From: Candidatus Omnitrophota bacterium
Lineage (GTDB): Bacteria; Omnitrophota; Gorgyraeia; Duberdicusellales; 4484-171
Direction of reading: 5' to 3'
DNA length: 64,000 nucleotides
Assembly: GCA_028692655.1 (NCBI GenBank)
Contig: JAQUWY010000004.1
Location: forward strand, 933-64,932
Shown: positions 27,976 to 46,225 of the stretch, in pieces
Layout of the letters: the number at the start of each line of letters is the position of its first letter
How positions within the stretch are numbered: the first letter of the stretch is position 1
Translations under genes and position numbers: made by a program
The notes under the pieces: generated by a model
Seen by the model: only the letters and a program-made list of their open reading frames with translations
Told to the model about the DNA's origin: nothing
The model's database searches: none

Positions 27976-29118
27976 ATGAAACCCTTCTCAAAACCAATTT
28001 ATGTTACACGTCCGTTGTTGCCGGATAGAAAAGCCATACATCGTAAACTTGATGAAATATTAGATGCCCAGTGGTTAACCAACCGAGGCCCACAACATAA
28101 ACTTTTCGAGAAAGAAATCACGCGATACTTAAAAGTTCCGTATGTAAGTTTAGTAAATAATGGCACCTCAGCCCTACAATTAGCTTGCCGCGTTTTACGG
28201 CTGACAGGGGAGGTAATAACAACACCTTTTACTTTTCCTGCCACACCACACGCGCTTTATTGGAATAATATAAAACCGGTTTTTTGCGATATCGAAGAGG
28301 CCAGTTGGAATATCGATCCATCCAAGATAGAAGCGCTAATCACTCCGGCTACAAGTGCTATACTTCCTGTACATGTGTTTGGCAACCCCTGTGACACCAA
28401 AGCTATACAGAAAATAGCAGATAAATATAGGCTCAAAGTTGTTTACGACGCAGCACATTGTTTTGGGGTAAAAGTTGGAGAAAAGGGTATAGGAAATTTT
28501 GGCGATGCCTCGGCTTTTAGCTTTCATGCGACAAAAGTATTCAACACCCTTGAGGGAGGAGCCATAACCTGCAAAGACCCAGCTATAAAGGAAAGGATAG
28601 ACTTGGCTAAGAATTTCGGTTTCCAGGGAGAAAATACAATAGTTGCTCCAGGCATAAATGCCAAAATGGATGAATTTCAAGCGGCTTTTGGTTTGGTATG
28701 CCTAAAAATTTTAGCCAGGGAGATAAAAAAAAGAAAAAAATTAACCGCAATATATCAGCAAAGATTAAGTAAAATAGAAGGAATTGATTTTGCAACTAAC
28801 AATAACAGAACGGTTGAGCATAATTATTATAATTTTGTAATCCGTGTGGATGAAGGAGAGTTTGGCAAAAGCAGAGACCAATTATATGAGGAGCTTAAAA
28901 AATACAATATATTTACACGCAAGTATTTTTATCCCCTTTGTAGCCAATTCCAGTGCTACAGAGATAGCTCATCAGTTTTCCCGATAAATCTTCCGGTAGC
29001 AGGAAGGGTGTCTAAAGAGGTCTTAAGTCTTCCCCTGTACGGAGGATTAGCTGAGAGCTGTGTAAGTAAAATATGCGACATCGTGGAAGCATTAAGGAAA
29101 TCTAATAATCAACTGTAG
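27976..29118 (+). CDS. DegT/DnrJ/EryC1/StrS-family PLP-dependent sugar aminotransferase
   Basis: 380 aa with the characteristic layout (DAAHCFG, SFHATKVFNTLEGG) of nucleotide-sugar aminotransferases. Confidence 0.85.
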   Translation: MKPFSKPIYVTRPLLPDRKAIHRKLDEILDAQWLTNRGPQHKLFEKEITRYLKVPYVSLVNNGTSALQLACRVLRLTGEVITTPFTFPATPHALYWNNIKPVFCDIEEASWNIDPSKIEALITPATSAILPVHVFGNPCDTKAIQKIADKYRLKVVYDAAHCFGVKVGEKGIGNFGDASAFSFHATKVFNTLEGGAITCKDPAIKERIDLAKNFGFQGENTIVAPGINAKMDEFQAAFGLVCLKILAREIKKRKKLTAIYQQRLSKIEGIDFATNNNRTVEHNYYNFVIRVDEGEFGKSRDQLYEELKKYNIFTRKYFYPLCSQFQCYRDSSSVFPINLPVAGRVSKEVLSLPLYGGLAESCVSKICDIVEALRKSNNQL

Positions 29119-29302
29119 TTATATTTTACTTTGATTAGGAAAGGTTACGACAACGACGAATGCAATATTTTTTACAATTTCTTGAAGTATTATTAAAGCA
29201 TAAACCTACACCAACAAAATAATTAGACTGTTTAAAAGTAAAAAAGAGAAATCTAGAAAGATACGGAAGCTCTAAGACCAAGATCAATTAAAAAAAAATA
29301 GA

Positions 29303-30040
29303 ATGGGCAAGCACAAGCGGGTTATCGTAATAGTAGACCACATAGAGTTATTTAAAGAATTTGTTGGTATTATACAACGATTAAAAAATAAGGTGTCATT
29401 TTCTTTTTTTTGCAGCCCAAAAAATAGAAATTTCAAGTTAAAAAAGTTCAAAACTTTTGAGGTAAAAAGCTTAGATGTAAACCAATCTCGGAAATGGGTT
29501 ATCGACAATTGCGATTTAGTTATATCGTTGCACTCAAAACAAATCTTTCCAAGTAAGCTAATAGCCAAGAAAAAGTGCGTCAATGTACACCCTGGCTTCT
29601 TGCCTTACAACAGGGGCTGGTACCCACATATTTTTTCTATTATAAACAAAAAACCTACCGGCGCGACAATACATGAGATGACCAATATATTAGATTTCGG
29701 CCCAATAATTGATAGTCAGGAAATCAAAATAAAACCCGATGATACTTCTGCGTCTTTATATAAAAAGATTTTCAAGGTGGAAGTGAAACTCATAAAAAAA
29801 AATATAGAAAAAATCATTGAGGGGGATTATACAACTGTTATGCCGAATACAAAAGGCAATATAAATTATAAAAAAGACTATTATAAACTTTTACCTATTG
29901 ACAGAAATAAAAAAATTAAAGCCGAAAAAATAATAAATAAGATCAGGGCTTTAACACATGGCGAATGCAGGGGAGCTTATTTTATTGATAAAAATAAGGA
30001 AAAGTTTGAAATTAAAGTGAGCTTACGCAGGGTTAAATAA
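29303..30040 (+). CDS. sugar N-formyltransferase-like protein (formyl_transf N-domain)
   Basis: VNVHPGFLPYNRGWYPHIF matches the HxSLLPxxxG motif of Fmt/WlaRD/VioF-type N-formyltransferases. It follows an aminotransferase. Confidence 0.65.
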   Translation: MGKHKRVIVIVDHIELFKEFVGIIQRLKNKVSFSFFCSPKNRNFKLKKFKTFEVKSLDVNQSRKWVIDNCDLVISLHSKQIFPSKLIAKKKCVNVHPGFLPYNRGWYPHIFSIINKKPTGATIHEMTNILDFGPIIDSQEIKIKPDDTSASLYKKIFKVEVKLIKKNIEKIIEGDYTTVMPNTKGNINYKKDYYKLLPIDRNKKIKAEKIINKIRALTHGECRGAYFIDKNKEKFEIKVSLRRVK

Positions 30041-30203
30041 GCCTTACAATTTAAATCAGCTGCGGCAAGAGATTGATGAATACAAAAAATAGGATTTAGG
30101 AAACGAAAATTCTGGGGACTAGAATTGAAAGAATAGAGTTTTGTTCTAACCCCGCGAAAAAACTTTATTTAAAGTGGGCCAGTAAATAAGGAAAACGCTG
30201 ACC

Positions 30204-32228
30204 ATGCATAATAATAAATATGTAATAGGAATCGGCTGTATAGGAAGCGGCGTGGGCCAGGCAATTATTGATTCATTGCGGCTGTCCAGGCTACCTCTCA
30301 GAACAGTCGGGCTGGGAACTAATCCGTTTGCTTATGGAGCCTATGATTGCGATACTTACGACTACGTTAAGAGTATATACGATAAAGGATTTATAGATAA
30401 TTTAATTTCTAAGTGCCTTCAGCATAAAATAGATTTTATTATTCCCGGCATGGAAGATGAAGTTCTGTTGTGTGCTAAGAATGCCCATAAATTTAAGGAT
30501 GCCAAAATAAAGGCAATAGTTTCTGATGAAGCGTTAATATCTATTTGCGTAGATAAAGAGAAAATGGGTAAAGAGCTAAGTAAAATTTGCGATGTATTTG
30601 TTAAGAATTACAATAAAGAAACGATAGAACAGGATATTAAAAACAGAGAAGTTTCTTTTCCTCTTATTGCTAAGCCGCGTGCAGGATACGCATCCAAAGG
30701 GATTGAAATTGTCAGAAGTTTAGAAGATTTAGCAAGGATAACCGATGACCACATCATACAAGAGCTTGCTATCCCGGCAGAGGACGATGTAAACTACCAG
30801 TTCTACATGAATCATATAGAAAAAAAACAAAATCCCCAAGTTTCAGAAATTTCTATTCAGCTTGTTTATAGTCCCGAAGGCCAACTAATGGGGCGCATGT
30901 CTTCATATAATAAATTAAAAAATGGTGTACCTATAGAAATAGTGCCATGCAATAATGAATATATCTGGAGCATTGTCGATCAATTAATCCCCACTTTGCT
31001 CAAATTAGGGATGAAGGGGCCGTTAAATATTCAAGGAAGGCTTACGCGGCAAGGTTTTAAAATCTTTGAAATTAACCCCAGGTTTACTGGAATTACCGGA
31101 TTGCGCGCGCTAATGGGTTTTAACGAAGTGGAGGCTTGTGTAAAAGAATGGCTCGGCATCGATAAAGGGAGAAATTTATTAACCCTAAACTATAACCGGT
31201 TTGGAATAAGGCAAGTAGCTGACAAGTCTATTTCTGTTGAAAGAAATAAAGAGGTGGAATCACTTTCCGTGAAATTAAACGGAAGAAATATCAAGGAGAA
31301 AAAAACAGTTCTTATTACCGGCGCTTGTGGGTATCTCGGGCAAAATCTTATAGCTAAATTATGCAAAGAAAAAATGTTTGAGGTGTGGGCGTTTGATCTT
31401 GATAAAGAAAAAATAAAAATGGTCCACGGGGATAGAACTAAGAATAAGTTTAATAAAGAGGACATTAGTTCCGGAATAATTCAATTAGGGAATGTAGATA
31501 TTTTACTGCATCTGGGGTTTACACGACCATATGGCTTGAGCCAGCAAATCGCCGATAGCCTTAGATTTACAAACGAGTTGTTCTCAAGAGCTGCCTTGCA
31601 CCATATACCAGCTATCATCAATATATCTACACAGAGTGTTTATGGAACAGAAGGCACCTTATCGTTGACAGAAAATACTCCTGTTAACCCTCAGACAATT
31701 TATGCCCAGGCCAAATATGCTACAGAACTATTTCTAGAATCTGCAAAAACAAATTTAAAAACATTATGTTATAGCTCTATAAGGCTTGGGACTCTTGCTG
31801 GAGGAGCAAACGGACTGGTTGAAGTAGATTTTTTGTCGAAGATTGCCAGAAGAGCTCTCAAAGGCGAAACTATTTACATTGTAAGCGGTACACAACGAAC
31901 AGAACGAATCGATATCAGGGACGCAATAGAGGCTATTGTTGCAATGCTAAAAGTAAACCATAGAATATGGAGGCCGGTGTATAATTTAGGTTCAGGCAAA
32001 ACATATAGCCTAAAAGAAATAGCAGAAAAAACAATCAATATCAGTTTGAGATATAACGGGGCAAGAAAATCAAAATTGACTATCGAAAATAAAGAGGCCG
32101 ATATACAGCCAGCTATAGATAGTTCGCTTTTTTATAAGGATATGAATTGGATGCCAAAATTCAGCATTGAAGAGAGCATCGAATCGCTGTTTATTTATTG
32201 GCGGAAATCAGGGTTCCCACAAACATGA
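30204..32228 (+). CDS. fusion protein: N-terminal ATP-grasp ligase domain plus C-terminal NAD-dependent epimerase/dehydratase (SDR) domain
   Basis: The ATP-grasp core (LIAKPRAGYASKGIEIV...FEINPRFTG) occupies about residues 1-340. The Rossmann motif VLITGACGYLGQNL starts the C-terminal 300 aa or so. Confidence 0.7.
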   Translation: MHNNKYVIGIGCIGSGVGQAIIDSLRLSRLPLRTVGLGTNPFAYGAYDCDTYDYVKSIYDKGFIDNLISKCLQHKIDFIIPGMEDEVLLCAKNAHKFKDAKIKAIVSDEALISICVDKEKMGKELSKICDVFVKNYNKETIEQDIKNREVSFPLIAKPRAGYASKGIEIVRSLEDLARITDDHIIQELAIPAEDDVNYQFYMNHIEKKQNPQVSEISIQLVYSPEGQLMGRMSSYNKLKNGVPIEIVPCNNEYIWSIVDQLIPTLLKLGMKGPLNIQGRLTRQGFKIFEINPRFTGITGLRALMGFNEVEACVKEWLGIDKGRNLLTLNYNRFGIRQVADKSISVERNKEVESLSVKLNGRNIKEKKTVLITGACGYLGQNLIAKLCKEKMFEVWAFDLDKEKIKMVHGDRTKNKFNKEDISSGIIQLGNVDILLHLGFTRPYGLSQQIADSLRFTNELFSRAALHHIPAIINISTQSVYGTEGTLSLTENTPVNPQTIYAQAKYATELFLESAKTNLKTLCYSSIRLGTLAGGANGLVEVDFLSKIARRALKGETIYIVSGTQRTERIDIRDAIEAIVAMLKVNHRIWRPVYNLGSGKTYSLKEIAEKTINISLRYNGARKSKLTIENKEADIQPAIDSSLFYKDMNWMPKFSIEESIESLFIYWRKSGFPQT

Positions 32229-32479: not shown

Positions 32480-33193
32480 TTATTCCTTAACAACAAATGC
32501 TGTTGGTGTCCACAGCCAAGGCAATGTTCTAATTTTAGAATTAGGGAGCAATTCTTTTATTGCCCTCGTTTCACCGGGGCTTATCTCATGGTTGAAAGAA
32601 TCAAACACAAGAATTCCGCCAGGCGTTATCCGCTCCCAAAAATTACGTAAACAGGACGCTACAATATCATATTGTCCAGCATCAATAATAACCAATTTAA
32701 ATTGCAAGTATGAGTTTGTCTTAAAGAAGGTGCCCAGTTCTGTTTTTAAATCCAATTTATGAATATGGATAATGTTCCCTAGTTGCTGCGCGTTTATCAG
32801 CTTCATTAGTCTTTTGTAGTCTTCTTTGTATGAACCCTTTAGAATATTCGGTTCTTCATTTGTCGAGTCCATACCCAAAAACCAATCAAAGCCGTGGACA
32901 AGCGTCAAACTCTCTGGCTCAAATATCTTTACAATTTTGGCTAGCCCAATGGTCCCAAAACCTTTATGGATCCCTGCTTCTGCTATGTGTCCTGCAACCC
33001 CCAGGCTCATTTTGTATAATTCATAAAGGCCGAGAAAACGTGCGATTGTCATGTGTCCTGCAAAGGAAGGGAAATGGTGTATATAGTCATCAAATACATA
33101 TCCTAAATTCTGCATGGCTTTAAGTCCTTTGTAGTAGGATTTTCGCCGGCTATCAAACTTCATTGATTCATATTTTTGATTAATAGGGTTCAT
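32480..33193 (-). CDS. TylF/MycF/NovP-family class I SAM-dependent O-methyltransferase
   Basis: 237 aa. GHIAEAGIHKGFGTIGLAKIV...VIIDAGQYDIVASCL...GGILVFDSF fits the macrocin-O-methyltransferase family. Confidence 0.55.
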   Translation of the reverse strand: MNPINQKYESMKFDSRRKSYYKGLKAMQNLGYVFDDYIHHFPSFAGHMTIARFLGLYELYKMSLGVAGHIAEAGIHKGFGTIGLAKIVKIFEPESLTLVHGFDWFLGMDSTNEEPNILKGSYKEDYKRLMKLINAQQLGNIIHIHKLDLKTELGTFFKTNSYLQFKLVIIDAGQYDIVASCLRNFWERITPGGILVFDSFNHEISPGETRAIKELLPNSKIRTLPWLWTPTAFVVKE

Positions 33194-33475
33194 AATTAAC
33201 CTCTTTGTAGTTATTGGCAGAAACTATTTTCTAGCTACGGGAAGCTAAAACGATAAGATTTTGTGTCAGAACGAGCTACCTCAAAGCAATGTTTATATTA
33301 TCACTATGATTCTTAAGGTGCAATATGTTTTGTCAAATGGATACTGGCCCAGGAGGCCGAACCAAAAGATATTCCTCACTCAGAAAAATTAGACAGTTCT
33401 ACTGTCACGCGAGCTGTTAGGAAACCTACAAAGTAAATATAGTGAAAATTAATTTACTATAATCGGGTTTGGTGA

Positions 33476-35230
33476 CTATTTGGCTGTGACCCAATATCCT
33501 TGGAGATAAAGTGCATCAATACCGCAATCGAGGAAATCGGTGATCGCATCTTCAGGGGTTAATACCATGGCTCGTCCATGGAGATTGAAGGAAGTGTTTA
33601 ATACTACACCGTAACCCGTTAACTGTTTTAATTCGGCCAATACCGAATAAAGAAAAGGCTCTCCTTTTTTTGTAACAAACTGAGGCCGAGCTGTGCCATT
33701 AATATGCGCTATAGCTTCTAAGGCATGGAGGTGTTCATCCCTAAGTTTGAAAGCTGAGGTCATGTGTTTATTTTGATAAGCGGAAACAAAAAGCCGATTA
33801 CATTCCTCAGCTAGCATACTTGGACAAAACGGCTGAAAGCTTTCCCGCCGTTTGATGTGGCCGTTAATACGATTTTTAATTGCTATCCCGCCAGCCGCGT
33901 TAGCCAGAAGAGAGCGATGCCCTAAGGCTCGCGGACCCCATTCTTGTGGCCCCCGGAAAAGAGCCAATATCTTATTATTGAAGATGTGTTTAGCGATACG
34001 TTTTTCACCGTCGGTAATTTTTTCAAATTTAATTTTGTTTCGTTTTGTTTCCAATGCAGACAAAATCTGGTTTTCGGAATAAGACGGTCCCCAAAAAGGC
34101 ATATCATGTTCCTTGATCCAATCGAGATTTTCACCTGCTTCAAGTGCGGCTAAGTAGGCTGCTCCTTGTGCGCTGCCGGAATCGTTCATTGCTGGCATAA
34201 TAAAAATTTGTTCAAAGCCGGCTCGCTCGAAAATAGCTTGATTCATGCTAACATTCCCAAAAATTCCGCCGGCGCACGCTACTTTTCCGCCAAGTTGGTT
34301 ACGCACAGCACGCATATATTCAACTGCTTTATCTTCTAGAAAGGCTTGTATTGTAGCAGCAAAATTCTCTCGGCCTAGCTGATCGCGAAGCGCTGTGAGA
34401 GTGTGTATATTCCAATATTTCAGTAGATAGTTTTCTTTACCTACAATGCTTAAATTTGGCGTAATAGCATATCCCTGCATGAGAGCGTCATATAATTTAG
34501 CACTGGGTGTTCCAAAAGAAGCCAACGCTTCAACTTTGCCTTCGTCCGCGTTGGGGTAATAACCAAGCAAGCGGGTTGCGTTAGCGTAAAGATAACCCCA
34601 TGTCCAGCGCAAATCAGATTTAGCATGTTGTATAACCTTGCCATTTCGTGCATGAAAGACTTTGCTGAAACAGCCATCTCCATAGCCATCCAGCGTTACA
34701 ATGGCACAATCATCAAAGCCGCAATGAAGGTAAGCGCCGACAGCATGACAAGTATGGTGATCATGCAGAGTAATTTTTTTAACCCACGGGAGACGGTTGG
34801 AATTTAATTTTAGCCATGCAGCATCCGTGATTTTTTGATGGCGTATTAAATCAGATTCGGTCAAGGATAAAAATTCCAACCAGCCTTTAACCACATTAGT
34901 TATTTTTGGATCTAGCCTGGAAATCCGTTCCAGTTTCTCTTTGCTCGAGATTAAAGGGTTTCTAAGAATCTCTCGGGCAGGATGTTCTTCAAGGCCAAAA
35001 ACGATTGGCAGCACTTGTCTTAAGCCCTGCAATTCGCTACAGCTGCCAAACGAAAAATGCAATGTATCAAATTTCCGTAAATAATCACCCATTAATGCAA
35101 TATGCCCGCTGTCTCGTTTGATTCGAGTGACACGTTCTAAAGCCAACCCAAATAATGTTTTTGAACTGACGTCAACAATAAAAAGACTTGCATCATGGTG
35201 AACTGGTTTGCACCCGGCGTATCGGCTCAT
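33476..35230 (-). CDS. NodU/CmcH/NovN-family carbamoyltransferase
   Basis: 584 aa with N-terminal HHDASLF and DHHTCHAVGAY motifs and the C-terminal carbamoyltransferase domain. Confidence 0.75.
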   Translation of the reverse strand: MSRYAGCKPVHHDASLFIVDVSSKTLFGLALERVTRIKRDSGHIALMGDYLRKFDTLHFSFGSCSELQGLRQVLPIVFGLEEHPAREILRNPLISSKEKLERISRLDPKITNVVKGWLEFLSLTESDLIRHQKITDAAWLKLNSNRLPWVKKITLHDHHTCHAVGAYLHCGFDDCAIVTLDGYGDGCFSKVFHARNGKVIQHAKSDLRWTWGYLYANATRLLGYYPNADEGKVEALASFGTPSAKLYDALMQGYAITPNLSIVGKENYLLKYWNIHTLTALRDQLGRENFAATIQAFLEDKAVEYMRAVRNQLGGKVACAGGIFGNVSMNQAIFERAGFEQIFIMPAMNDSGSAQGAAYLAALEAGENLDWIKEHDMPFWGPSYSENQILSALETKRNKIKFEKITDGEKRIAKHIFNNKILALFRGPQEWGPRALGHRSLLANAAGGIAIKNRINGHIKRRESFQPFCPSMLAEECNRLFVSAYQNKHMTSAFKLRDEHLHALEAIAHINGTARPQFVTKKGEPFLYSVLAELKQLTGYGVVLNTSFNLHGRAMVLTPEDAITDFLDCGIDALYLQGYWVTAK

Positions 35231-35531
35231 ATGTATAATTTAATTATTTTATTTAGGGTTTACAATACGAAAGTTATTTATTCTATTCCCACCTTTTAAG
35301 TGGATACTTGCTAATTAAACAGTATTATTATCGCTTAAAGCATCATTGTGGCAGAATATAACATATCATAGTTTTTCTTTGGTTTACTGGCAATACCAGT
35401 ATAAACAAATTTTAATATCATTTTTTACTAAAGATGGCTGCAACTATATGTCGATCGCGTGTAATAGTATTACTAATAATAAATTCTGTCAATAGTTAAA
35501 ATGGCGAAAACTATCAAAAAGAGAGGTGCCT

Positions 35532-35654
35532 ATGAGTATTTTACAAAAACAACTATATATTATAATGTTGCAAATCAAGTCTATGTTTTATCTGATTTTC
35601 AACTGCTCTAAGGAAAAGGCTTGTGATTCCAATAATTGTGGTTTACTATACTAA
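35532..35654 (+). CDS. possible small ORF (40 aa) with a Cys-rich C-terminus, upstream of a radical SAM/SPASM gene
   Basis: ATG preceded by AAAGAGAGGTG. MSILQKQLYIIMLQIKSMFYLIFNCSKEKACDSNNCGLLY. Speculative. Confidence 0.2.
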   Translation: MSILQKQLYIIMLQIKSMFYLIFNCSKEKACDSNNCGLLY

Positions 35655-35881
35655 GTATATTAACCGGTCCAGATATTTAAAAATATAAAAGAAGTTAATA
35701 CAGGTCAAACGGCATTAAGGCATGCCGGAAAACATTTCGATTTTAATTAAACAGAAATGGGCAAAAATCAGCGCATATTAAAGAAGTTTTATTAAGTGGG
35801 GATTGCCACACTATGGTGATCTTGGGAGTATAAGTTTAAAAAAGCGGAAGGTGTAGAAAGTTGCAGATCCTCATTTTGTAA

Positions 35882-36933
35882 ATGGATAATCTACTAGCGA
35901 AATACAAAAGGATTAAAAAGTATACCAGAGGCATTATGGGCCATAGGCAGTGGTTTTGGAATGCAGCCGCTAAGGGCGTAGTATTGTTTTTGACGAACAG
36001 GTGTAATTCAAAATGCAGAATTTGCGGTATTTGGCAAGAGGAACCTAAAAAGGATATGCCTGTGGACATGGTGAAGTCTCTCTTAAAAAGCAGGCTTATC
36101 ATACCGGAGCATACTGTGTTTGTTATCCAAGGAGGAGAGGCTATATTGCACCCACGCTGCGGAGAGATATTAACAGCTATTCAAAAAAAGGTTTTAGTTA
36201 TACATTGCTTTCCAATGGGCTCGATAGTCACAAGTTGGTAGAGTTTGTTGAAAAATTCAGCATAAAGAATGTAAACTTGTCTTTGGATGGCCGTCCATCA
36301 ACGTATATGAACGTAAGAGGCGTGGATGGATACGATTCCGTTATAAAATCAATCGAGGAACTAAAAAAAAGAAAAGTGGCAGTAACGATAGCGTATACTG
36401 TTAATCCGTGGAATCGCCGGGAGGACTATACTCATATTCTGGGAATAGTCAAAAGATATGCTATTGGCCTGAGGACAGTTATATATGAAGACGCGAAAGT
36501 CTTTAACGTAGATTTTAAAGGGCGTGTTTTGTGTGACATTCCAGATTTAATGAAAAATGATTTAGAGCAAAAGTTTGTTTTGCTTTATAAAAAATGGCTG
36601 GAAGGCATGAAAATACCGTGCATGAGCATATTTGACAATACTTTTATAATGCCAAACGGTGACGTGCGACTGTGTCATGGCAGTGAGGTAGTATTGGGTA
36701 ATTTGTCAAAGGAGCTATTCGATTCTATATGGACATCAAAGAAGACAAAAAGAATCTTAAAGCAGCACATATTATGTAATAAATGCTACACTTACTGTCA
36801 TAGGAAGTTCGATATTTCTATACTTAATATTCTAAAATTTCTACCCACATTTATTTTAGAAAAGCTTTTTAAAGGTGACGTTAAGCTAATCATAGACGAA
36901 ATTAAACGCAAGGAAAGCGTTCCCTCCCGTTAA
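35882..36933 (+). pseudogene. radical SAM / SPASM-domain protein, frameshifted at an A7 run (36183-36189)
   Basis: Cx3Cx2C motif CNSKCRIC and GGEAILH in the first frame. The downstream frame continues with LLSNGLDS and the SPASM cysteines (CMSIF...CHG...CNKCYTYC). One extra A would fuse the frames, giving ...AIQKKGFSYTLLSNG.... Confidence 0.75.
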
Positions 36934-37229
36934 ACGGAAGCCTCACTTATTAACACTGTATTAGCTCAGGAGGAGCGGTTATCTTTTGCAAAATTTAGCT
37001 TGACCAGCGGTGCATATTAAAGGTAAAATTCAGACAGTAGCAGCTTTAGTAAGCTATAAAATTTAATCTCTCGGAATAAATCCCCGGGCTTTAGCCCGTG
37101 GGATGAATGTAATTGTAATTTTTTACTCGGGAGCAAGGCCATGTATCAAGACTGTAGAGGCCTTACAAGGGATGGATTTAAATATGTAAAACAGGAATTT
37201 GAGTAAATTGAGGATTTTAGAATTAAAAT

Positions 37230-38654
37230 ATGCAACGGAACTTAGTTTTTTTGAAAAGCGTATTTGCTGAAAATAGCAAGGTAACCAAACTAGATTCATT
37301 TTTTAGGTGGTTTAATATTCAGAAGGAGAATGTCGACGTCGAAGTAAACAAAATCCCCTTTAATGATTTAGGCTTGTGGTATTTTGACGCTCAGACAAAA
37401 GCTTTAAAGCATCGAAGCAATAAATTTTTCTCAATAGAAGGCATTCGCGTAGAAACAAATTATGGAAAAATACCTAAATGGGACCAACCAATTATTAATC
37501 AACCCGAAATAGGTTACCTGGGACTCATTGCAAAAGAGTTCGATGGGGTTTTACATTTTTTAATTCAAGCCAAGGTAGAACCCGGTAATATAAACTACGT
37601 ACAACTATCGCCGACTTTACAGGCAACTCGCAGTAACTATACTCAGGTACATAGCGGAAAGAAGCCGTTATATTTAGAATATTTTAAAAACGCTAAACCC
37701 CAAGATATTTTACTGGATCAATTGCAGTCAGAGCAAGGCGCTAGGTTTATTAAAAAACGCAATCGAAATTTAATTATAAAGGTCGATAAAGATATACCAG
37801 TTTACGACCATTTTGTCTGGGTGACATTAAAGCAAATTAAAAAGCTGTTACGGTTTGACAACCTTGTCAATATGGACACTAGAGCCGTTATTTCCGGAAT
37901 TACTTTTGGCTATTTCGAGCCGCAGGTAATTAATTTTTTTACTTTTCTTTACAATTCTAATAAAAACCCTATTAACAAAGCATTTCTAAAGTCAGCATTA
38001 CCAAGCAACAGCTCAGTTAATAGCCTCGAAGATATCATTCACTATATCACACAGCTAAAAAGTACTCTCAACCTTAAAATTACCAATATCCCACTTGATC
38101 AGTTAAAAAATTGGACGTTGGGTGAAAACGAAATTTACCATAATGAGCATAAGTACTTTAAAGTATTGGCTATCGATGTAAAGGTAAAAGGACGTGAAAT
38201 AACAAAATGGAGCCAGCCTATGGTTAAACCTGTTCAGGAAGGGTTATGTGCCTTTGTTTGTAAAGAAATTAATGGTTTGCTTCATTTTGTTGTCCAAATC
38301 AAACTAGAGTGCGGGAATTATGACATTGTCGAGCTTGCACCAACGGTACAATGTCTTACGGGGGATTATCCTCTCGCGAGGGAAGGGAAGCTCCCTTTTA
38401 TTGATTATGTATTAAAAGCTAAGCCGGAACAAATTATTTATAATGTTTTGCAGTCAGAAGAAGGAGGCAGATTTTTTAACGAGCAAAACCGGAATATGAT
38501 TGTATTAGCTAACGACGAAGTGTCAAATGAACTTCCGCCAAACTATATCTGGGTAACTTTAAGTCAGCTGCAAACTTTTTTAAAATTCAACAATTACTTG
38601 AATGTTCAAGCCCGTAGTTTGATTTCAGCTATTTCATTTTATAATGAAAGCTAA
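37230..38654 (+). CDS. NDP-hexose 2,3-dehydratase (duplicated-domain EvaA/TylX3/Gra-Orf27 family)
   Basis: 474 aa with an internal duplication (WDQPIINQPEIGYLGLIAKEFDGVLHFLIQAKVEPGN / WSQPMVKPVQEGLCAFVCKEINGLLHFVVQIKLECGN) characteristic of this family. Confidence 0.75.
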   Translation: MQRNLVFLKSVFAENSKVTKLDSFFRWFNIQKENVDVEVNKIPFNDLGLWYFDAQTKALKHRSNKFFSIEGIRVETNYGKIPKWDQPIINQPEIGYLGLIAKEFDGVLHFLIQAKVEPGNINYVQLSPTLQATRSNYTQVHSGKKPLYLEYFKNAKPQDILLDQLQSEQGARFIKKRNRNLIIKVDKDIPVYDHFVWVTLKQIKKLLRFDNLVNMDTRAVISGITFGYFEPQVINFFTFLYNSNKNPINKAFLKSALPSNSSVNSLEDIIHYITQLKSTLNLKITNIPLDQLKNWTLGENEIYHNEHKYFKVLAIDVKVKGREITKWSQPMVKPVQEGLCAFVCKEINGLLHFVVQIKLECGNYDIVELAPTVQCLTGDYPLAREGKLPFIDYVLKAKPEQIIYNVLQSEEGGRFFNEQNRNMIVLANDEVSNELPPNYIWVTLSQLQTFLKFNNYLNVQARSLISAISFYNES

Positions 38655-39633
38655 AACTATAAATATAGGAGTTATCGGTTGCGCCGATATTGCAGAGAGA
38701 TTTGTAATACCGGCCATTAAAAATTTAACCGACCAATATAAATTAGTTGGTGTTGCAAGCCGGGATCAAGCCAAAGCCTTGCAGTCTGCTGTTAAATTTA
38801 GTCTTCAACCTTACTGTGGCTATAATTCATTACTGGAATCGGGGCAGATAGATGCCGTTTATATACCTTTGCCTAGCGCATTGCACCAAGAATGGGCCGG
38901 AAAAGCATTAAAGCTTGGTTTGCATGTATTAGTAGAAAAGTCCTTGGCTTGCAGTTACAAAGAAGTCCAGTGGCTTAACCAACTGGCTAAAAATGAAGGA
39001 TTGGTTTTGATCGAAAACTTTCAATTCCGTTTTCATAGTCAACTAGCTATAATTAGCAAAATGCTTTCCGGAGGGGTTATAGGAGAATTAAGATGTTTGA
39101 GGAGCTCCTTTGGTTTCCCACTATCTCCTGATCCTGGAAATATCCGTTATCAAAAGAATCTTGGAGGAGGTGCTTTGTTTGATGCAGGTGCATACCCAAT
39201 CAAAATTGCCCAGCATTTTCTTGGCTTGAATCTTTCTGTTGAAGCAGCAAATCTTACATTTGACCATATAAATGAGGTAGATATATGGGGAGGAGCATAT
39301 CTTAAACAAAATAACGGAAAGCTTTTTGCAGAGATTGCTTTTGGTTTTGATAACTATTATCAATGCAGTATAGAATTGTGGGGCAGTAAAGGTACTCTTT
39401 GTGCAAAGCGTATTTTTACCGCACCCCCAGGACATTTTCCCGAAATAATTCTTGAAACGGTAAAGGGTATAGAGACAATACGGCTTCAACCCGATCACCA
39501 TTTTAAAAATATATTAAGACATTTTTATCAGCTTATTATTAACCCTAAAAGTTTAGAGGAAGAATATCGGCAAAATGAAAATCAAGCTAGGCTTATTGAA
39601 GAATTACGAATAAAAGCTTATGAGAAACAATAA
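38644..39633 (+). CDS. Gfo/Idh/MocA-family NAD(P)-dependent oxidoreductase (candidate sugar 3-ketoreductase)
   Basis: N-terminal Rossmann IGVIGCADIAERFVIPAI and the family layout. It sits between the 2,3-dehydratase and an aminotransferase. Confidence 0.75.
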   Translation: MKAKTINIGVIGCADIAERFVIPAIKNLTDQYKLVGVASRDQAKALQSAVKFSLQPYCGYNSLLESGQIDAVYIPLPSALHQEWAGKALKLGLHVLVEKSLACSYKEVQWLNQLAKNEGLVLIENFQFRFHSQLAIISKMLSGGVIGELRCLRSSFGFPLSPDPGNIRYQKNLGGGALFDAGAYPIKIAQHFLGLNLSVEAANLTFDHINEVDIWGGAYLKQNNGKLFAEIAFGFDNYYQCSIELWGSKGTLCAKRIFTAPPGHFPEIILETVKGIETIRLQPDHHFKNILRHFYQLIINPKSLEEEYRQNENQARLIEELRIKAYEKQ

Positions 39634-40705
39634 GCCAATTTTTGTCACTAAGCCTTCATTAGCACCGTTAAAGGAATACACAAAAATCCTTAAAGAGGTT
39701 TGGAGAAGAGGCGTACTTACGCACAATGGCCCTCTAGTCCAGTCATTAGAGGAAAAAATATGCAGGAAGTTTGGCCTTAACTATTTTGTAGCGGTTTCCA
39801 ATGGTACCATCGCTCTTCAGATGGCCATTAAGGCCTTGAAACTAAAAGGTGAAATAATCACCACTCCCTTTACATGGATAGCAACAATAAGCGCTATTAA
39901 ATGGCAAGGATGCCAGCCGGTTTTTTGTGATATCGATAGGCATACTTTAAATATTGACCCAGCTAAGATAGAATCTTTGATTACACCTTTGACAACGGCG
40001 ATACTTCCAGTGCATGTTTTTGGTAATCCTTGCGATATAGAAGGAGTAGAAGCTGTAGCTAAGAAGCATAAACTAAAAGTCATTTACGATGCCGCTCATG
40101 CGGTAGGCTCGACCTATAAAGGCAAAAGTATACTTAAATACGGCGATATTTCAGCTATCAGCTTTCACGCAACAAAGTTAATGAATACTGCCGAAGGCGG
40201 AGGATGTGTTGCAAAAAATCGAAAACTTTACGAAAAATTAAAATGTATTCGTTTTTTCGGCTATAATGACCAAAAGAATATGGTAGAGGAAGGGTTTAAC
40301 GGCAAGATGACTGAAGTTCATGCTGGGCTAGGCTTAGCTAATCTAAGATATTACAATAAGGTGCTTTCCGACAGAAAACATAAGTGTTTGTACTATCGCC
40401 AAAAGCTTTCTTCTCTAAAGTTTATTTCGTTTCAAGAATGTAAAACAAACGAGACAAATTACTCTTATTTCCCGGTTATATTTGATTCCGAAAAGAGACT
40501 TATCGCGGTTAAAAAAAAGCTGAATGCCAAAAGAATATTCCCTCGAAGGTATTTCTTCCCTTCAGTAAATACTTACACGAAGAACGATAACTATCGGCCA
40601 GCTCCTATTTCTGAAAGTATATCCAAGAGAATTTTATGTTTGCCTTTATACTGGGAGCTAAAAGTTGATGAAATGAAAAAAATTATAAAACTAATTTCTA
40701 AGTAG
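39620..40705 (+). CDS. DegT/DnrJ/EryC1/StrS-family PLP-dependent sugar aminotransferase (second copy)
   Basis: 361 aa. DAAHAVGS and SFHATKLMNTAEGG. Paralogous to 27976..29118. Confidence 0.85.
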   Translation: MRNNKPIFVTKPSLAPLKEYTKILKEVWRRGVLTHNGPLVQSLEEKICRKFGLNYFVAVSNGTIALQMAIKALKLKGEIITTPFTWIATISAIKWQGCQPVFCDIDRHTLNIDPAKIESLITPLTTAILPVHVFGNPCDIEGVEAVAKKHKLKVIYDAAHAVGSTYKGKSILKYGDISAISFHATKLMNTAEGGGCVAKNRKLYEKLKCIRFFGYNDQKNMVEEGFNGKMTEVHAGLGLANLRYYNKVLSDRKHKCLYYRQKLSSLKFISFQECKTNETNYSYFPVIFDSEKRLIAVKKKLNAKRIFPRRYFFPSVNTYTKNDNYRPAPISESISKRILCLPLYWELKVDEMKKIIKLISK

Positions 40706-40745
40706 AGGTGTGTTATATTAAATTGCTAACATTTTGTGTAAAGCT

Positions 40746-41417
40746 ATGGAAAAAATAGTAATTTATGGAGCAGGAAACCAAGCCAGAGTTGTAATTGATT
40801 CTGTTGAAAAGGAGCAAAAATATAATGTAATCGGGTTGATTGACGATGAAAAACCGGAGGGAACAGAAGTTTTAGGCTACAAAGTGATAGGAAACAAACA
40901 AAAGTTGTTAAGTTTATTGGGTTCTGGCATCCGCCTTTGCATCATTGCCATAGGCGATAACAAAGTAAGGAAAGAAAAGGCAGAATATATAATGGAGAAA
41001 AGTTTTAGCCTTGTTTCCGTGAAGCACCCGTTTTGTTCAGTTGGCAAAGGGACGTCTATTGGAGCAGGAACGGTTATTTTTCATGGGGTAGTTATAGATC
41101 CTGAGGTATCCATTGGCAAGTGCGTTATTATAAATGATAACACTTTGGTGGGGCACAATAGCAAGATAGGCGACTTTGCTCATATTTCTGCAGGGGTCAA
41201 CTTTGGAGGGGGTTCGGTCATTGAAGAAAATAGCTTTATAGGTATGGGAGTGACAGTTATTCCAAATATACACATAGGAAAAAATGTTTTTATAGGAGCC
41301 GGAAGCCTAATAGCAAGAGATATCCCGGATGACATGAAAGTTATTGGATTTATGCGCAAGACAATGATAAATAGAATAAATAAAGAAGTAAAACCAGACA
41401 ATAAAGAGTATACTTAG
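40746..41417 (+). CDS. PglD/NeuD-family sugar N-acetyltransferase (hexapeptide repeat)
   Basis: N-terminal Rossmann-like IYGAGNQARVVIDS followed by left-handed beta-helix repeats. Confidence 0.75.
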   Translation: MEKIVIYGAGNQARVVIDSVEKEQKYNVIGLIDDEKPEGTEVLGYKVIGNKQKLLSLLGSGIRLCIIAIGDNKVRKEKAEYIMEKSFSLVSVKHPFCSVGKGTSIGAGTVIFHGVVIDPEVSIGKCVIINDNTLVGHNSKIGDFAHISAGVNFGGGSVIEENSFIGMGVTVIPNIHIGKNVFIGAGSLIARDIPDDMKVIGFMRKTMINRINKEVKPDNKEYT

Positions 41418-41778
41418 AATTATTGCCGTCCGGTGATGCCTCGTATTTAATCTAACGCATAAAGCATATTTGTTTTTGTCGAAGTAAGCACAAACTCAAT
41501 TCTCATTATTTAATAAGGCATTTCGGAACATAATCAAAGCCTTCAGAGACTGGGTTGCTTTTATCATGGAAATGCATATTTTAAGTTCGGAGTAAACGCT
41601 TGGTCTGAATTTTGCGAGATAGGGTTTTCTGTAATTGGATCTTGGGCCTAAAACAAAAGCAGGGATAAATAATTCTTATATATACAAAATATTTATTGTA
41701 GTTATAATGAAAATTGCACGAGAGTATTATGTCAATCAATTATTTTAACGGCATTTTCACCACACAATAGCACTATTA

Positions 41779-43623
41779 ATGGGTAGAGTCAGGAATAAGA
41801 TAACCAAAACAAAAGCTTATCTAAACCTAATTAGGTTAAAGAATTTCTTTGACATGGCGGATATGGGTTTTCGCCAGCTGATAGGGCCTGTAATACTTGC
41901 GATTTTAGCATCTTTATTTGAAGGAATTTCCTTTGTATTGGTAATTCCGACCATAAAGGGGATTCTTAGCGGCGATTTTGCATTTGTAAAACAGACACCA
42001 GTATTAAAAGATATCATCAGCATACTTTTACCTTTTTTTAGCCGGCCAAATTCAGCGATATTTGCAATATTGATTGTATGTATTCTCATTTCAGTCTCAC
42101 TGAAAAATTTATTCCAGTATTTATCTTCAGCTACAACTCTTTTCTTGGTTAGGCAATTTGCCCACAACTTGAGAAAGCTTATATTTAAACGTTACTTGAA
42201 CTTCGGCAAACTTTTCTTTGACCAAAACAGCGCCGGCGGGCTTTTCCAGGTTCTAGTAGGATTTAGTCAAAAAATAGCTAACGAAATAAGAATTTTAAAT
42301 GGCGCTTTATATACGCTGTTTACGCTTGTAGCATATATTGTTGTAATGGCATTTATTTCCTGGAAATTGTTGATAGCTACTATTATTATCTTTCCGGTTT
42401 TCCATTGTTCTGTAACCTGGCTTGTAAAAAAAATCAAAGATAGCTCATATTATTTTACACAAGCTTACTCAGAACTAGGAAAAAAAATATCTAACTCATT
42501 GTCATGCATGGCATTAATAAAAGCCTATACAGCAGAGAAACGAGAGCAGGAATGGTTTTCTTATGCAAGTGAAAGAGTAAGAAAATACCAATTCAGCATA
42601 GATAAAAAAATGGCTCTCTTAGCCCCATTCCAGGAGACTATTTTCGTATTTATGATCCTCTTGTTGGTGGGGGCAATAGCTTTTCTGCTTGTGCGTGAAA
42701 AAACAGGAAACCTTGCAGGGTACATAGTTTTTTTTGTGGTTTTAAGGAGGAGTAGCTCAAGCTTTGGAGCTTTTAATAATATCCGTAGTTCTCTTGCTTC
42801 AATAAAGGGGCCCATAAAAGAAGTTATGAAAATGTTCAATAGCCATGACAAGCACATTATGAAAGACGGTACAACAGAACTTAAAAATATAAGCAAAAGT
42901 ATAGAAGTGAAGCGCCTAAGATTTACTTATCCCCAGGGTGCTCGAGTTCTAAAAGATGTTAGTTTTTCTGCGTCCAAAGGTGAAATGGTGGCGGTAGTAG
43001 GCTCTAGCGGAAGCGGTAAGACTACGCTTATAAATATGATAATGCGTTTCTACGATCCCTTAAATGGAAGCATAGCAATAGACGGTAGGGATATAAAAGA
43101 ATTCACTTTTAAATCTTTACGGAGCAAGATAGCTTTAGTAAGCCAGGAAACTTTTCTTTTTAATTCTTCAATCCGATTTAACATACTCTATGGATTGAAT
43201 AGGAAGGTTGAGGAAGAAGAACTTCTTTGCGCGGCAAAAAAAGCGCAAATTTACGACTTTATAATGACTCTGCCAAAAAGGCTGGATACTGAAATAGGAG
43301 ATAGGGGGGTTAAATTGTCAGGCGGGGAAAAGCAAAGGATTTCTATTGCCAGAGCTATTCTCAAAGGTCCGGAAGTCATTATTCTGGATGAAGCAACCAG
43401 CTCCCTTGATTCAATAACCGAAAAGAAGATACAACAAGCGTTCAAAGAACTAATAAAAAATAGGACTGCCATAGTAATCGCCCACAGGCTGTCAACTATA
43501 AAAAATGCCGACAAGATTATAGTTTTAGAAAAAGGCGAGATTGTTGAGCGAGGAACGCTTGAAGAACTTCTCCGTAAAAAAGGGCAGTTTTACTTATATT
43601 GGGAAGAACAAAAGTTCTACTGA
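41779..43623 (+). CDS. ABC transporter permease/ATP-binding protein (MsbA/PglK-like exporter)
   Basis: Six-TM domain plus NBD with Walker A GSSGSGKTT, signature LSGGEKQRISIAR and Walker B IILDEATSSLD. Confidence 0.85.
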   Translation: MGRVRNKITKTKAYLNLIRLKNFFDMADMGFRQLIGPVILAILASLFEGISFVLVIPTIKGILSGDFAFVKQTPVLKDIISILLPFFSRPNSAIFAILIVCILISVSLKNLFQYLSSATTLFLVRQFAHNLRKLIFKRYLNFGKLFFDQNSAGGLFQVLVGFSQKIANEIRILNGALYTLFTLVAYIVVMAFISWKLLIATIIIFPVFHCSVTWLVKKIKDSSYYFTQAYSELGKKISNSLSCMALIKAYTAEKREQEWFSYASERVRKYQFSIDKKMALLAPFQETIFVFMILLLVGAIAFLLVREKTGNLAGYIVFFVVLRRSSSSFGAFNNIRSSLASIKGPIKEVMKMFNSHDKHIMKDGTTELKNISKSIEVKRLRFTYPQGARVLKDVSFSASKGEMVAVVGSSGSGKTTLINMIMRFYDPLNGSIAIDGRDIKEFTFKSLRSKIALVSQETFLFNSSIRFNILYGLNRKVEEEELLCAAKKAQIYDFIMTLPKRLDTEIGDRGVKLSGGEKQRISIARAILKGPEVIILDEATSSLDSITEKKIQQAFKELIKNRTAIVIAHRLSTIKNADKIIVLEKGEIVERGTLEELLRKKGQFYLYWEEQKFY

Positions 43624-43839
43624 CAAACGTTCATATTCGTCTATGTACAGTAACTATACAAATCTGGAGAGGAATGATTTTTCTTGCCGGATAGATGGAA
43701 GCTTGGAGTACAAACAAACTTTTGAGCATGAGAAAAGCAAGCCGTTTCTCTGATACCCAGAGAATATTTCAAACAAAAACTTTTGTAGAGAATCAGATTT
43801 TTATCAAAACTGCTTTCTAATATATAAAGTAAATTTAGT

Positions 43840-44973
43840 ATGTTAAATATAGTACAAATACATACCGACAGTAAATTCATAGATGAAGGAATGAGCCGGT
43901 TCGAAAGTAAATTCTTCAGAAATACTTTAATAATATTTAAGGGTGGCAGGAAATATCATGGGAAGCATAGAGAGATAGCCAATGTGTTTAAAAGAAACCG
44001 TAAGAGCATAAAAAAGATAATAGATATTTGTAGTAATGCCGATCTTGTTGTGTTGTTTGATTTAGACGAAATAAAAAGCTATATTACAAACCGGCTTCCC
44101 AAAGAAACAAAAATTGCTTGGCGTTTTTTTGGACATGAATTATACGGTAGAAAAACTAAGACATTTCTAAGTAAATTAACAATAGAAGCTATTAAAAATA
44201 AGTGGTTTTTTTATCTGTGGCAAAGGTTAAAAAGAAGGCTAAAAAAAATAAAAGGTTACATTAAATGGGGGGTCGATTTCGAAAAGGAATTTAAGATAGC
44301 GCTTAAAAGAGTGGATTATTTTTTATGTACCTCTCAGGAAGAATGCAATTTCCTAAAAAAAATATGGCCGGGTTTACCCCAGTTTATCAGATTTCCAATA
44401 ATAAATAGCATAAAAGCAATTGCCGGTAATTTAGATAAAAGAGGGTTGCCTGTTGTTGTCGGGCACAATAAAATTGTTTGGAATAATCACCTTGAACTGA
44501 TAGAAATTATAGGAAACTCAAATAATAGAAAAAAACATAATTTTTTATTATTATTTAGTTATGGGTTAGAGAATAAATATACAAGAACAGTAAGGGAAAA
44601 GGCAAGCGGGTACCCTGAGATCAAATTTATTGAAAAGTTTATGTCCAAAGAGGAATTTGAAGTTTTTTATTCGCAGGTGTCCGCTTTAGTGATAAATACC
44701 TACAGACAAGCTGGCCTGGGAAATATTTTTCAAGCAATAAAAAACGGAGTAAAAGTGTATTTAAACGGAAAAAATATTGTTTTGCAATGGCTAAAAAATG
44801 AGAGGTTTCTAATATTCACTATTAAAGATTTTGCGAATGACATCGAAGATGACAATTTAGCTTTGGGAAAACAAGAAATTATCTATAATCAAAAACGGCT
44901 GGATAATATGTTGGGGAAACGGTCCATAGAGGATTTTCAAAAAGCAATATACGATAAAATAAATGAATTTTGA
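43840..44973 (+). CDS. WecF-like (TDP-Fuc4NAc:lipid II 4-alpha-L-fucosyltransferase family, GT56) glycosyltransferase
   Basis: Recalled similarity blocks to E. coli WecF: RFFGHELYG vs HIWGADLY, VVVGHNKIVWNNHLE vs ILVGNSGDRSNEHI, and GLGNIFQAIKNGVKVYLNGKN vs [21 protein letters not shown]. Confidence 0.45.
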   Translation: MLNIVQIHTDSKFIDEGMSRFESKFFRNTLIIFKGGRKYHGKHREIANVFKRNRKSIKKIIDICSNADLVVLFDLDEIKSYITNRLPKETKIAWRFFGHELYGRKTKTFLSKLTIEAIKNKWFFYLWQRLKRRLKKIKGYIKWGVDFEKEFKIALKRVDYFLCTSQEECNFLKKIWPGLPQFIRFPIINSIKAIAGNLDKRGLPVVVGHNKIVWNNHLELIEIIGNSNNRKKHNFLLLFSYGLENKYTRTVREKASGYPEIKFIEKFMSKEEFEVFYSQVSALVINTYRQAGLGNIFQAIKNGVKVYLNGKNIVLQWLKNERFLIFTIKDFANDIEDDNLALGKQEIIYNQKRLDNMLGKRSIEDFQKAIYDKINEF

Positions 44974-46207: not shown

Positions 46208-46225
46208 TTCACTAATTTAATATAG

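Follow-up and report, generated by a model that had tools for sequence, protein, structure and literature searches.

A putative 4-amino-2,4,6-trideoxyhexose cassette in a surface-glycan locus of Candidatus Omnitrophota

The window analyzed here is a stretch of 64,000 nucleotides from contig JAQUWY010000004.1 of a Candidatus Omnitrophota bacterium (GenBank assembly GCA_028692655.1), and our subject is a cassette of four genes within it (37230-41417) that encode a nucleoside diphosphate (NDP)-hexose 2,3-dehydratase, a sugar 3-ketoreductase, a DegT aminotransferase, and an N-acetyltransferase (Table 1). A few kilobases upstream lie genes for a methyltransferase and a carbamoyltransferase, which an earlier note made from the sequence alone had joined with the cassette as a pair resembling NovP and NovN of novobiocin biosynthesis. 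All six genes that it named are present at the positions listed in Table 1 with family scores far beyond chance, and for the dehydratase, reductase, aminotransferase, acetyltransferase, and carbamoyltransferase the families that it gave hold by Pfam as well as by matches to solved structures. We propose with moderate confidence that the cassette produces thymidine diphosphate (dTDP)-4-acetamido-2,4,6-trideoxyhexose for a lipopolysaccharide (LPS) or O-antigen glycan, which would join known enzyme families in a predicted pathway to a sugar not yet described from surface glycans. Families, catalytic residues, and conserved gene order are observed here, while the substrates, the regiochemistry, and the destination of the sugar are predicted.

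The cassette enzymes and related loci

The dehydratase matches its Pfam family over two stretches (502.8 bits against a cut-off of 25 bits) and aligns with EvaA (4j7g; E = 1.7e-106) across both tandem domains. By this alignment, the catalytic glutamates in pocket A of EvaA, Glu139 and Glu190 (PMC8987622), correspond to E117 (in KVEPGN) and E168 (in LQSEQG) of the dehydratase. The reductase is closest to KijD10 (3rbv; E = 3e-61), with the next solved protein 35 orders of magnitude weaker (7.6e-26), and its K99 (VEKSL) and Y183 (GAYPI) are the Lys and Tyr that are mutated in the KijD10 variants 3rc7, 3rc9, and 3rcb. Lysine 186 of the aminotransferase, in the motif SFHATK, is the residue that binds pyridoxal phosphate (PLP) and stands where 3-dehydratases carry a His; the best solved match of this enzyme is DesI (2po3; E = 1.2e-53). 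The acetyltransferase passes the cut-off of TIGR03570 (NeuD/PglB/VioB; 194.5 against 160.8 bits), and its matches among solved proteins are led by PerB (2.1e-32) and followed by PglB, PglD, and VioB, while the C3-amine enzyme QdtC reaches 59 bits. PerB, PglB, PglD, and VioB acetylate C4 amines, and H141 of the cassette enzyme corresponds to the His that is exchanged in PerB variants 4eaa and 4eab. Its more likely start is the ATG at 40746 of the public gene call, though a TTG at 40734 is also readable. The dehydratase and reductase genes overlap by 11 nt and the reductase and aminotransferase genes by 14 nt.

Related loci were profiled with an exact peptide-pattern scan of one genome per species, a small sample of 24 loci, to which homologue look-ups added Alkalitalea saponilacus and Flavobacterium nackdongense for a total of 26 dehydratase loci. 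A homologue of the KijD10-like reductase adjoins the dehydratase in 24 of them (downstream on the same strand in 23), from Bacteroidota to Streptomyces, and we conclude that 2,3-dehydratase and 3-ketoreductase form an old, fixed pair. Orthologues of the aminotransferase, one tight clade with 56-69% identity, come next after this pair in L003, L005, L006, L012, L013, and L018, and a short-chain dehydrogenase/reductase (SDR; 45-47% mutual identity) takes the same slot in L004, L009, L010, and L017; no locus carries both enzymes. In L003, L005, L006, and L012, no SDR was found within up to 10 kb on each side of the dehydratase (for L003, within only about 1.4 kb upstream). We read the SDR as a probable 4-ketoreductase that would complete a 2,6-dideoxyhexose. 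The loci that combine dehydratase, reductase, and SDR come from Flavobacterium, Rhizobium, Saprospiraceae, and Chitinophagaceae and are predicted to furnish surface polysaccharides with 2,6-dideoxyhexoses of the digitoxose or olivose type.

The surroundings of these cassettes are those of exported polysaccharides. The genes wzm and wzt lie directly upstream in L003, L006, and L012 (with a Wzt_C carbohydrate-binding domain in the Wzt of L003 and L006, two of the three), a Wzx flippase gene adjoins the cassette in L005, L013, and L018, and glycosyltransferase genes are found downstream of cassettes in related loci. The N-acylating enzyme varies, being PglD-like in L003, L005, L013, and L018 and WbqC-like in L006 and L012, and in L013 an AMP-binding enzyme is encoded beside it. 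The same four-gene cassette is present in cultured Alkalitalea saponilacus (L003) and Rhodohalobacter sp. 8-1 (L018). The earlier note had called such a cassette rare in surface-polysaccharide loci, which does not hold among genomes: Wzm/Wzt or Wzx genes accompany it repeatedly in Bacteroidota as well as in the Rhodohalobacter isolate, and altogether it is found in O-antigen or capsule loci of Omnitrophota, Bacteroidota, and Balneolota. At E <= 1e-20, the dehydratase matches at least 8,000 clusters of proteins, of which the top-ranking 120 are 61-67% identical and have their named sources in Bacteroidota, including Alkalitalea, Sediminibacterium, Flavobacterium, and Cyclobacteriaceae. Overall, the dehydratase shares 53-67% identity with enzymes of Bacteroidota and proteobacteria and 36-43% with those of actinomycetes; the module is widespread and essentially unstudied outside the latter.

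Table 1. Features of the window, with the cassette genes first, followed by the neighboring genes and the wider setting
Feature	Coordinates	Strand	Family matches and remarks
NDP-hexose 2,3-dehydratase, EvaA type	37230..38654	+	PF03559 (Hexose_dehydrat), duplicated Nudix-like domains
Sugar C3-ketoreductase, KijD10 type, NAD(P)H-dependent, Gfo/Idh/MocA fold	38644..39633	+	PF01408 and PF22725
PLP-dependent DegT sugar aminotransferase, C4 action predicted	39620..40705	+	PF01041 (DegT_DnrJ_EryC1), 309.3 bits
N-acetyltransferase, PglD/PerB/VioB class, acetyl-CoA-dependent	40746..41417	+	PglD_N (PF17836) and Hexapep (PF00132)
S-adenosylmethionine (SAM)-dependent sugar O-methyltransferase-like protein	32480..33193	-	Methyltransf_24 (PF13578), 38 bits
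O-carbamoyltransferase, NodU/CmcH/NovN/TobZ family	33476..35230	-	PF02543 (Carbam_trans_N, Kae1-like) 147.6 bits and PF16861 (Carbam_trans_C, YrdC-like) 176.4 bits, both full length
Radical-SAM/SPASM gene, split	35882-36933	+	two overlapping open reading frames, 35882-36241 and 36205-36933
Second DegT aminotransferase (DegT1)	27976..29118	+	PF01041 343.9 bits; PLP_DesI 330 bits
Sugar N-formyltransferase	29303..30040	+	Formyl_trans_N and N_formyltrans_C
ATP-grasp and extended-SDR fusion	30204..32228	+	PylC-like_N, ATPgrasp_Ter, Epimerase
Fused ABC exporter (transmembrane and nucleotide-binding domains), HepA/MsbA-like	41854..43623	+	ABC_membrane and ABC_tran; start per public gene call
Candidate glycosyltransferase, WecF-like	43840..44973	+	no Pfam match, no transmembrane segments
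Wzy_C O-antigen-ligase-like (WaaL-like) membrane protein	60249-61628		11 hydrophobic segments
Four tRNA genes	22625-23991		directly upstream of glycan locus
gyrA, gyrB, dnaN, dnaA	first 22 kb	-	
yidC, parA, parB, ndk, yicC, gmk	first 22 kb	+	

The predicted sugar and competing explanations

The route that we propose would begin with dTDP-4-keto-6-deoxy-D-glucose made by RmlA and RmlB, which would be encoded outside the window. The EvaA-type dehydratase would remove the C2 hydroxyl to yield dTDP-3,4-diketo-2,6-dideoxyglucose, the KijD10-type enzyme would reduce C3 to leave dTDP-4-keto-2,6-dideoxyhexose, the aminotransferase would aminate C4, and the PglD/PerB-type enzyme would N-acetylate this amine to form dTDP-4-acetamido-2,4,6-trideoxyhexose. 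A glycosyltransferase of the locus, possibly the WecF-like protein as a weak candidate, would place the sugar into the surface glycan, in whose export the neighboring ABC exporter may assist and which the WaaL-like ligase may join to the core. Gene order suggests that the aminotransferase consumes the C4 keto group because it occupies the slot of the SDR that we read as a 4-ketoreductase, and amination at C4 is further indicated by the best matches, given that DesI, for the aminotransferase, and PerB, PglB, PglD, and VioB, for the acetyltransferase, all act at this carbon. The overlaps of 11 and 14 nt point to a single pathway. An origin from dTDP-activated sugar is suggested by rmlA and rmlC directly upstream of the four-gene cassette in Rhodohalobacter (L018) and by rmlA with an RmlB-like SDR gene beside those of dehydratase, reductase, and aminotransferase in Desulfosporosinus (L020).

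Each half of this route resembles a known system. The first two enzymes of the cassette, a 2,3-dehydratase and a subsequent Gfo/Idh/MocA 3-ketoreductase, are shared with the actinomycete dTDP-2,6-dideoxy and aminodeoxysugar pathways represented by EvaA (chloroeremomycin), KijD10 (digitoxose of kijanimicin), and SpnO/SpnN/SpnR (forosamine), and the catalytic residues of EvaA and KijD10 are the same as in the cassette enzymes. In the forosamine route, transamination at C4 follows reduction at C3, as proposed here. However, these pathways belong to polyketide synthase (PKS) or nonribosomal peptide synthetase (NRPS) clusters, whereas the cassette is part of an LPS locus of a Gram-negative Omnitrophota bacterium, has a PglD-class enzyme that would N-acetylate the amine in place of N-methylation, and is without a step of C3 deoxygenation. 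The second half is shared with the O-antigen pathways to dTDP-4-acetamido-4,6-dideoxyglucose (dTDP-Qui4NAc; VioA/VioB) and GDP-N-acetylperosamine (GDP-PerNAc; PerA/PerB) and with the PglD class, in which a DegT aminotransferase likewise precedes an acetyltransferase of PglD_N and left-handed beta-helix domains with a catalytic His; the VioA/VioB and PerA/PerB pathways also have the same surface-polysaccharide setting. Unlike there, the substrate in the cassette would first be 2-deoxygenated and C3-reduced, so that the product would be without a 2-hydroxyl. Sugars lacking this group are not unprecedented on Gram-negative surfaces because the protein O-glycan of Tannerella forsythia is established to contain the 2,6-dideoxyhexose digitoxose (PMC5378307, PMC6120980). 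Digitoxose thereby documents 2,6-dideoxy sugars on Bacteroidota surfaces, which the dehydratase-reductase-SDR loci such as the one of Flavobacterium nackdongense (L004) fit, but it has a hydroxyl at C4, whereas in the cassette the aminotransferase and acetyltransferase replace the 4-ketoreductase.

Several observations weigh against this assignment, which is least certain with regard to the carbon at which the aminotransferase acts, as this is predicted mainly from gene-order logic and also from best-match similarity. The top NCBIfam model of this enzyme, PLP_DesI (TIGR04427), scores 262.2 bits against a cut-off of 650, which means that it is not a DesI orthologue, and the C3 aminotransferase QdtB reaches 156 bits against it compared to 186 for DesI, a gap of about 30 bits with which similarity alone is not decisive between C3 and C4. 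Neither RmlA nor RmlB was found in the window by tblastn, for which related loci supplied one RmlA and one RmlB-like query, or by Pfam scans of 48 open reading frames (ORFs; every ORF of the window with at least 150 amino acids except four that overlap scanned genes), as the earlier note had observed, and the nucleotide carrier and the starting sugar are consequently our inference. The acetyltransferases of related cassettes are 26-38% identical to that of the window or are replaced by WbqC-like proteins, so that the acyl group is not a fixed part of the module. The candidate glycosyltransferase matches the NCBIfam model of TDP-Fuc4NAc:lipid II transferase weakly (residues 3-352, E = 2e-11, 43.6 bits, cut-off 457 bits) and is a weak lead for the transferase of a 4-acetamido sugar. 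Finally, we found no published surface glycan with a 4-acetamido-2,4,6-trideoxy sugar in the literature that could be searched, where comma-bearing names cannot be matched exactly and a negative therefore carries little weight; the result fits novelty and a wrong prediction equally.

If the aminotransferase instead acted at C3 of the 3,4-diketo intermediate in the manner of EvaB or DnmJ, the product would be the 3-acetamido-2,3,6-trideoxyhexose of the earlier note, and both the missed DesI cut-off and the small distance to QdtB are compatible with this since C3- and C4-acting DegT enzymes are hard to tell apart by sequence. We nevertheless consider it distinctly unlikely: An overlapping, co-transcribed 3-ketoreductase of the KijD10 type would compete for the C3 keto group and be redundant, and a 4-ketoreductase would be required that is absent from the examined sequence of the cassette loci L003, L005, L006, and L012, while the mutual exclusion of aminotransferase and SDR in one operon position and the C4-amine enzymes among the best matches of the acetyltransferase (with QdtC far behind) are also at odds with it. 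To our knowledge, the pathways to 3-amino-2,3,6-trideoxy sugars such as epivancosamine and daunosamine lack a 3-ketoreductase, which we count against amination at C3. The four genes could also serve two sugars, with dehydratase and reductase making a 2,6-dideoxyhexose such as digitoxose together with a 4-ketoreductase encoded elsewhere, for example in the SDR domain of 30204-32228, and with aminotransferase and acetyltransferase converting dTDP-4-keto-6-deoxyglucose to a 4-acetamido-4,6-dideoxyhexose. A DesI-like and a VioB/PerB-like enzyme are indeed the exact set for dTDP-Qui4NAc, loci with dehydratase, reductase, and SDR and without the aminotransferase exist (L004, L009, L010, and L017), digitoxose is established in the T. 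forsythia surface O-glycan (PMC5378307), and an SDR domain is encoded 5 kb upstream (30204-32228). Yet the aminotransferases form their tight clade always directly downstream of dehydratase and reductase, the gene overlaps suggest translational coupling within one pathway, and in L003, L005, L006, and L012 the examined sequence contains no SDR that could otherwise use up a 4-keto-2,6-dideoxy product. Such a division into two sugars therefore appears unlikely to us.

The decoration of the cassette product by both methyltransferase and carbamoyltransferase, as NovP and NovN decorate the noviose of novobiocin by 4-O-methylation and 3-O-carbamoylation, strikes us as highly improbable despite the location of both genes 2-5 kb from the cassette. 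The carbamoyltransferase is of the same family as NovN (E = 4.6e-49), and the methyltransferase shares the fold of NovP, TylF, MycF, and CalS11, with a model that superposes on NovP at a TM score of 0.66 and 2.7 A root mean square deviation (rmsd). However, phmmer did not retrieve NovP with the methyltransferase even at E <= 1, and this protein stays below the Pfam cut-off for TylF, its closest match being CalS11, an enzyme of dTDP-rhamnose. Both genes are absent from all 26 dehydratase loci, and their adjacency is not kept among the relatives of either enzyme: the three examined loci with methyltransferase orthologues have no carbamoyltransferase, and the closest relatives of the carbamoyltransferase (62-64% identity) have no methyltransferase or dehydratase as neighbor. 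On chemical grounds, glycosidic linkage leaves a 4-acetamido-2,4,6- or 3-acetamido-2,3,6-trideoxy sugar with a single free hydroxyl (that of C3 in the predicted sugar), so that it could not be both O-methylated and O-carbamoylated. Together with the co-conserved 3-ketoreductase and the C4-type matches, this contradicts the O-methylated and O-carbamoylated 3-acetamido or 2,6-dideoxy sugar of the earlier note, and its NovP/NovN-like pair is better described as two separate tailoring enzymes peculiar to this locus, of which at most one could act on the cassette sugar.

Because of its single free hydroxyl, a 4-acylamido-2,4,6-trideoxyhexose could only be terminal or 3-linked, and we entertain as a doubtful possibility that it serves specifically to cap the O-polysaccharide at its non-reducing end. 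If so, and if the methyltransferase or carbamoyltransferase blocked this hydroxyl, the sugar would be an obligate chain terminator that sets chain length and serves as recognition tag for export; this would explain the cassette beside wzm/wzt in several Bacteroidota loci and define a class of O-antigen terminators made from an antibiotic-type deoxysugar across several phyla. Confirmation of the favored 4-acetamido-2,4,6-trideoxyhexose, a prediction directly testable in two carriers that are in culture, Alkalitalea saponilacus and Rhodohalobacter sp. 8-1, would add this sugar to the catalogue of bacterial monosaccharides, provide enzymes for the glyco-engineering of 2-deoxy amino sugars, and reveal "antibiotic" deoxysugar chemistry as common to, or taken over from, the biosynthesis of the cell envelope. 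In a review of nucleotide-sugar dehydratases from 2022 (PMC8987622), 2,3-dehydratases appear only as enzymes of antibiotic pathways in actinomycetes, and the papers that full-text searches found to use this term are almost only on actinomycete natural products. Full-text searches for 2,3-dehydratase or EvaA with O-antigen or LPS and for PF03559 gave no description of the cassette in surface glycans; an apparent match to "EvaA" in a Vibrio paper was part of a DOI string.

The neighboring tailoring enzymes and the upstream amino sugar module

The "TylF family" to which the methyltransferase had been assigned applies at the level of fold but not by the Pfam threshold, given that its match to TylF (PF05711) reaches 17.8 bits (E = 0.0021) with a gathering threshold of 23 bits; many of its orthologues (58-74% identity) do have a precomputed PF05711 match. 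By sequence, it finds CalS11 at E = 2.3e-7. An AlphaFold model (22 orthologues; pLDDT 83) retrieved CalS11 (8.2e-15), SpnH (2.6e-9), MycF (7.7e-9), and NovP (6.9e-8) with Foldseek, and the modeled structure places the protein as a distant member of this structural group of sugar O-methyltransferases with CalS11 as its nearest relative. CalS11 methylates dTDP-rhamnose ahead of glycosyl transfer (PMC4760980). The methyltransferase belongs to a large and well-conserved family of 237-residue proteins. Enzymes like TylF, NovP, and MycF bind their metal with an Asp triad in a DxD...DD motif, and by this motif D171 and D198 of the methyltransferase are invariant in the 22 orthologues, while the other expected acidic positions are G173 and S199/Q199.

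Orthologues of the methyltransferase in three examined loci are encoded directly beside an aminotransferase that is 40-41% identical to DegT1, the second DegT enzyme of the window, and 35% identical to the cassette enzyme. These loci also hold genes for N-acylation, namely a formyltransferase, an ATP-grasp protein, WbqC, and a pair of acyl-carrier and AMP-binding proteins, and this gene context groups the methyltransferase with the 4-amino-4,6-dideoxyhexose module upstream of it (27976-32228). In loci L031 and L032, the orthologue is preceded, with a start/stop overlap or a gap of 2 nt, by a gene (7069-8004 and 7069-7998, respectively) for a conserved protein of 309-311 amino acids without Pfam match whose two copies are 46% identical; no counterpart of this partner was found in the window.

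The carbamoyltransferase matches GdmN, NovN, and TobZ about equally well (all near 1e-49) and misses the NodU equivalog by a wide margin (112.5 bits against a cut-off of 1000). Six homologues share at least 49% identity with it, and the two that were examined have unrelated neighbors. Methyltransferase and carbamoyltransferase genes had been described as convergently oriented, which is not the case between the two since both lie on the minus strand, though as a pair they do converge on the plus-strand fusion gene 30204-32228.

The upstream module comprises DegT1, which is 42% identical to the cassette aminotransferase, the N-formyltransferase, and the ATP-grasp/SDR fusion. The formyltransferase passes the cut-off of NCBIfam model PRK07579 (dTDP-4-amino-4,6-dideoxyglucose formyltransferase; 249.5 against 238 bits), and DegT1 and formyltransferase are together predicted to make dTDP-4-formamido-4,6-dideoxyglucose. 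The earlier note had considered the SDR domain of the fusion as a source of the cassette's precursor, which is unlikely. While this domain has the GxxGxxG and YxxxK motifs, it reads N-I-S-T-Q-S-V-Y-G at the site where 4,6-dehydratases carry their catalytic T-D-E motif. With S-T-Q-S in place of T-D-E and 45.9 bits against the TIGR01181 cut-off of 365, we rejected it as RmlB. It is unusual as such for a PylC/CPSase-like ATP-grasp domain to be fused to an extended SDR, and a similar ATP-grasp protein stands alone in the methyltransferase-orthologue locus L031.

The glycan locus and its surroundings

The opening 22 kb of the window are the replication-origin neighborhood of a Candidatus Omnitrophica genome. 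Dehydratase, carbamoyltransferase, and methyltransferase each have a 100% identical counterpart among the proteins annotated at NCBI for a metagenome-assembled genome of Candidatus Omnitrophica. The cumulative GC skew has its minimum at 14-16 kb, and in the origin region (13799-18352), where dnaN and dnaA lie on the minus and yidC on the plus strand, oriC probably sits in the gap at 16327-16918. Across the tRNA genes, G+C content decreases from approximately 0.44 to approximately 0.36, and a glycan locus of about 40 kb begins there with nearly all of its genes on the plus strand. This tRNA-flanked drop suggests a variable or horizontally acquired island beside the replication origin.

Besides the genes discussed above, the locus encodes glycosyltransferases (GTs) of the GT2, GT4, and GT34-like types, two GT9 (heptosyltransferase-family) proteins, two pyruvyl transferases, an FkbM methyltransferase, several radical-SAM proteins, and one insertion sequence (IS) element. 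The Pfam-scanned ORFs of the window include no PKS or NRPS genes; their absence and the presence of GT9, GT2, and GT4 proteins, pyruvyl transferases, and the Wzy_C ligase rule out a secondary-metabolite cluster, and the region of about 40 kb is an LPS/O-antigen locus. The earlier note was right to see an antibiotic-type 2-deoxysugar cassette in a surface-polysaccharide locus. The ABC exporter, which is also part of this surface-glycan context, scores 485.6 bits with the HepA_fam_ABC model and 397 bits with MsbA, both under cut-off, has five hydrophobic segments, and is the probable exporter of the glycan or lipid-linked glycan of this locus. A scan for promoters and terminators at 32-42 kb gave counts near shuffled expectation.

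Two Logan metagenome contigs (L001 and L002) match the window at 37088-48654 and 37080-39105 with zero mismatches. Both are independent assemblies and stop within the G+C-rich hairpin CCCGGGCTTTAGCCCGTGGG (37080-37100) just upstream of the dehydratase gene, either as an assembly artefact at the palindrome or at a strain-variable junction. Between the methyltransferase and carbamoyltransferase genes and the cassette lies the split radical-SAM/SPASM gene, which the earlier note had not mentioned. The first of its two ORFs has the Radical_SAM match and a CxxxCxxC motif and the second the SPASM match, and their frameshift falls within an A7 run (36183-36189) where one added A would join both frames into a protein of about 350 amino acids; possible explanations are a phase-variable switch, a pseudogene, or an error of the assembly. 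Further radical-SAM genes at 50997-52040 and 61816-62973, the latter with a SPASM/twitch domain, bring their number in the glycan locus to three.

The IS element (55380-56123; rve integrase core and HTH_21) is inserted between a GT4 gene and the GT9 genes at a local G+C peak of 0.42. Iron-sulfur proteins similar to FrhB/FdhB are encoded at 24424-26247 and 49788-50975, one of them fused to a hexapeptide acyltransferase, and the gene of the other follows the second pyruvyl-transferase gene at a distance of about 1.4 kb with a WbuX-like gene in between. The latter (48390-49787) matches N-acetyl sugar amidotransferases with 133 bits, under the cut-off of 203 bits, and is a hint that the glycan may also contain a sugar with an acetamidino group.

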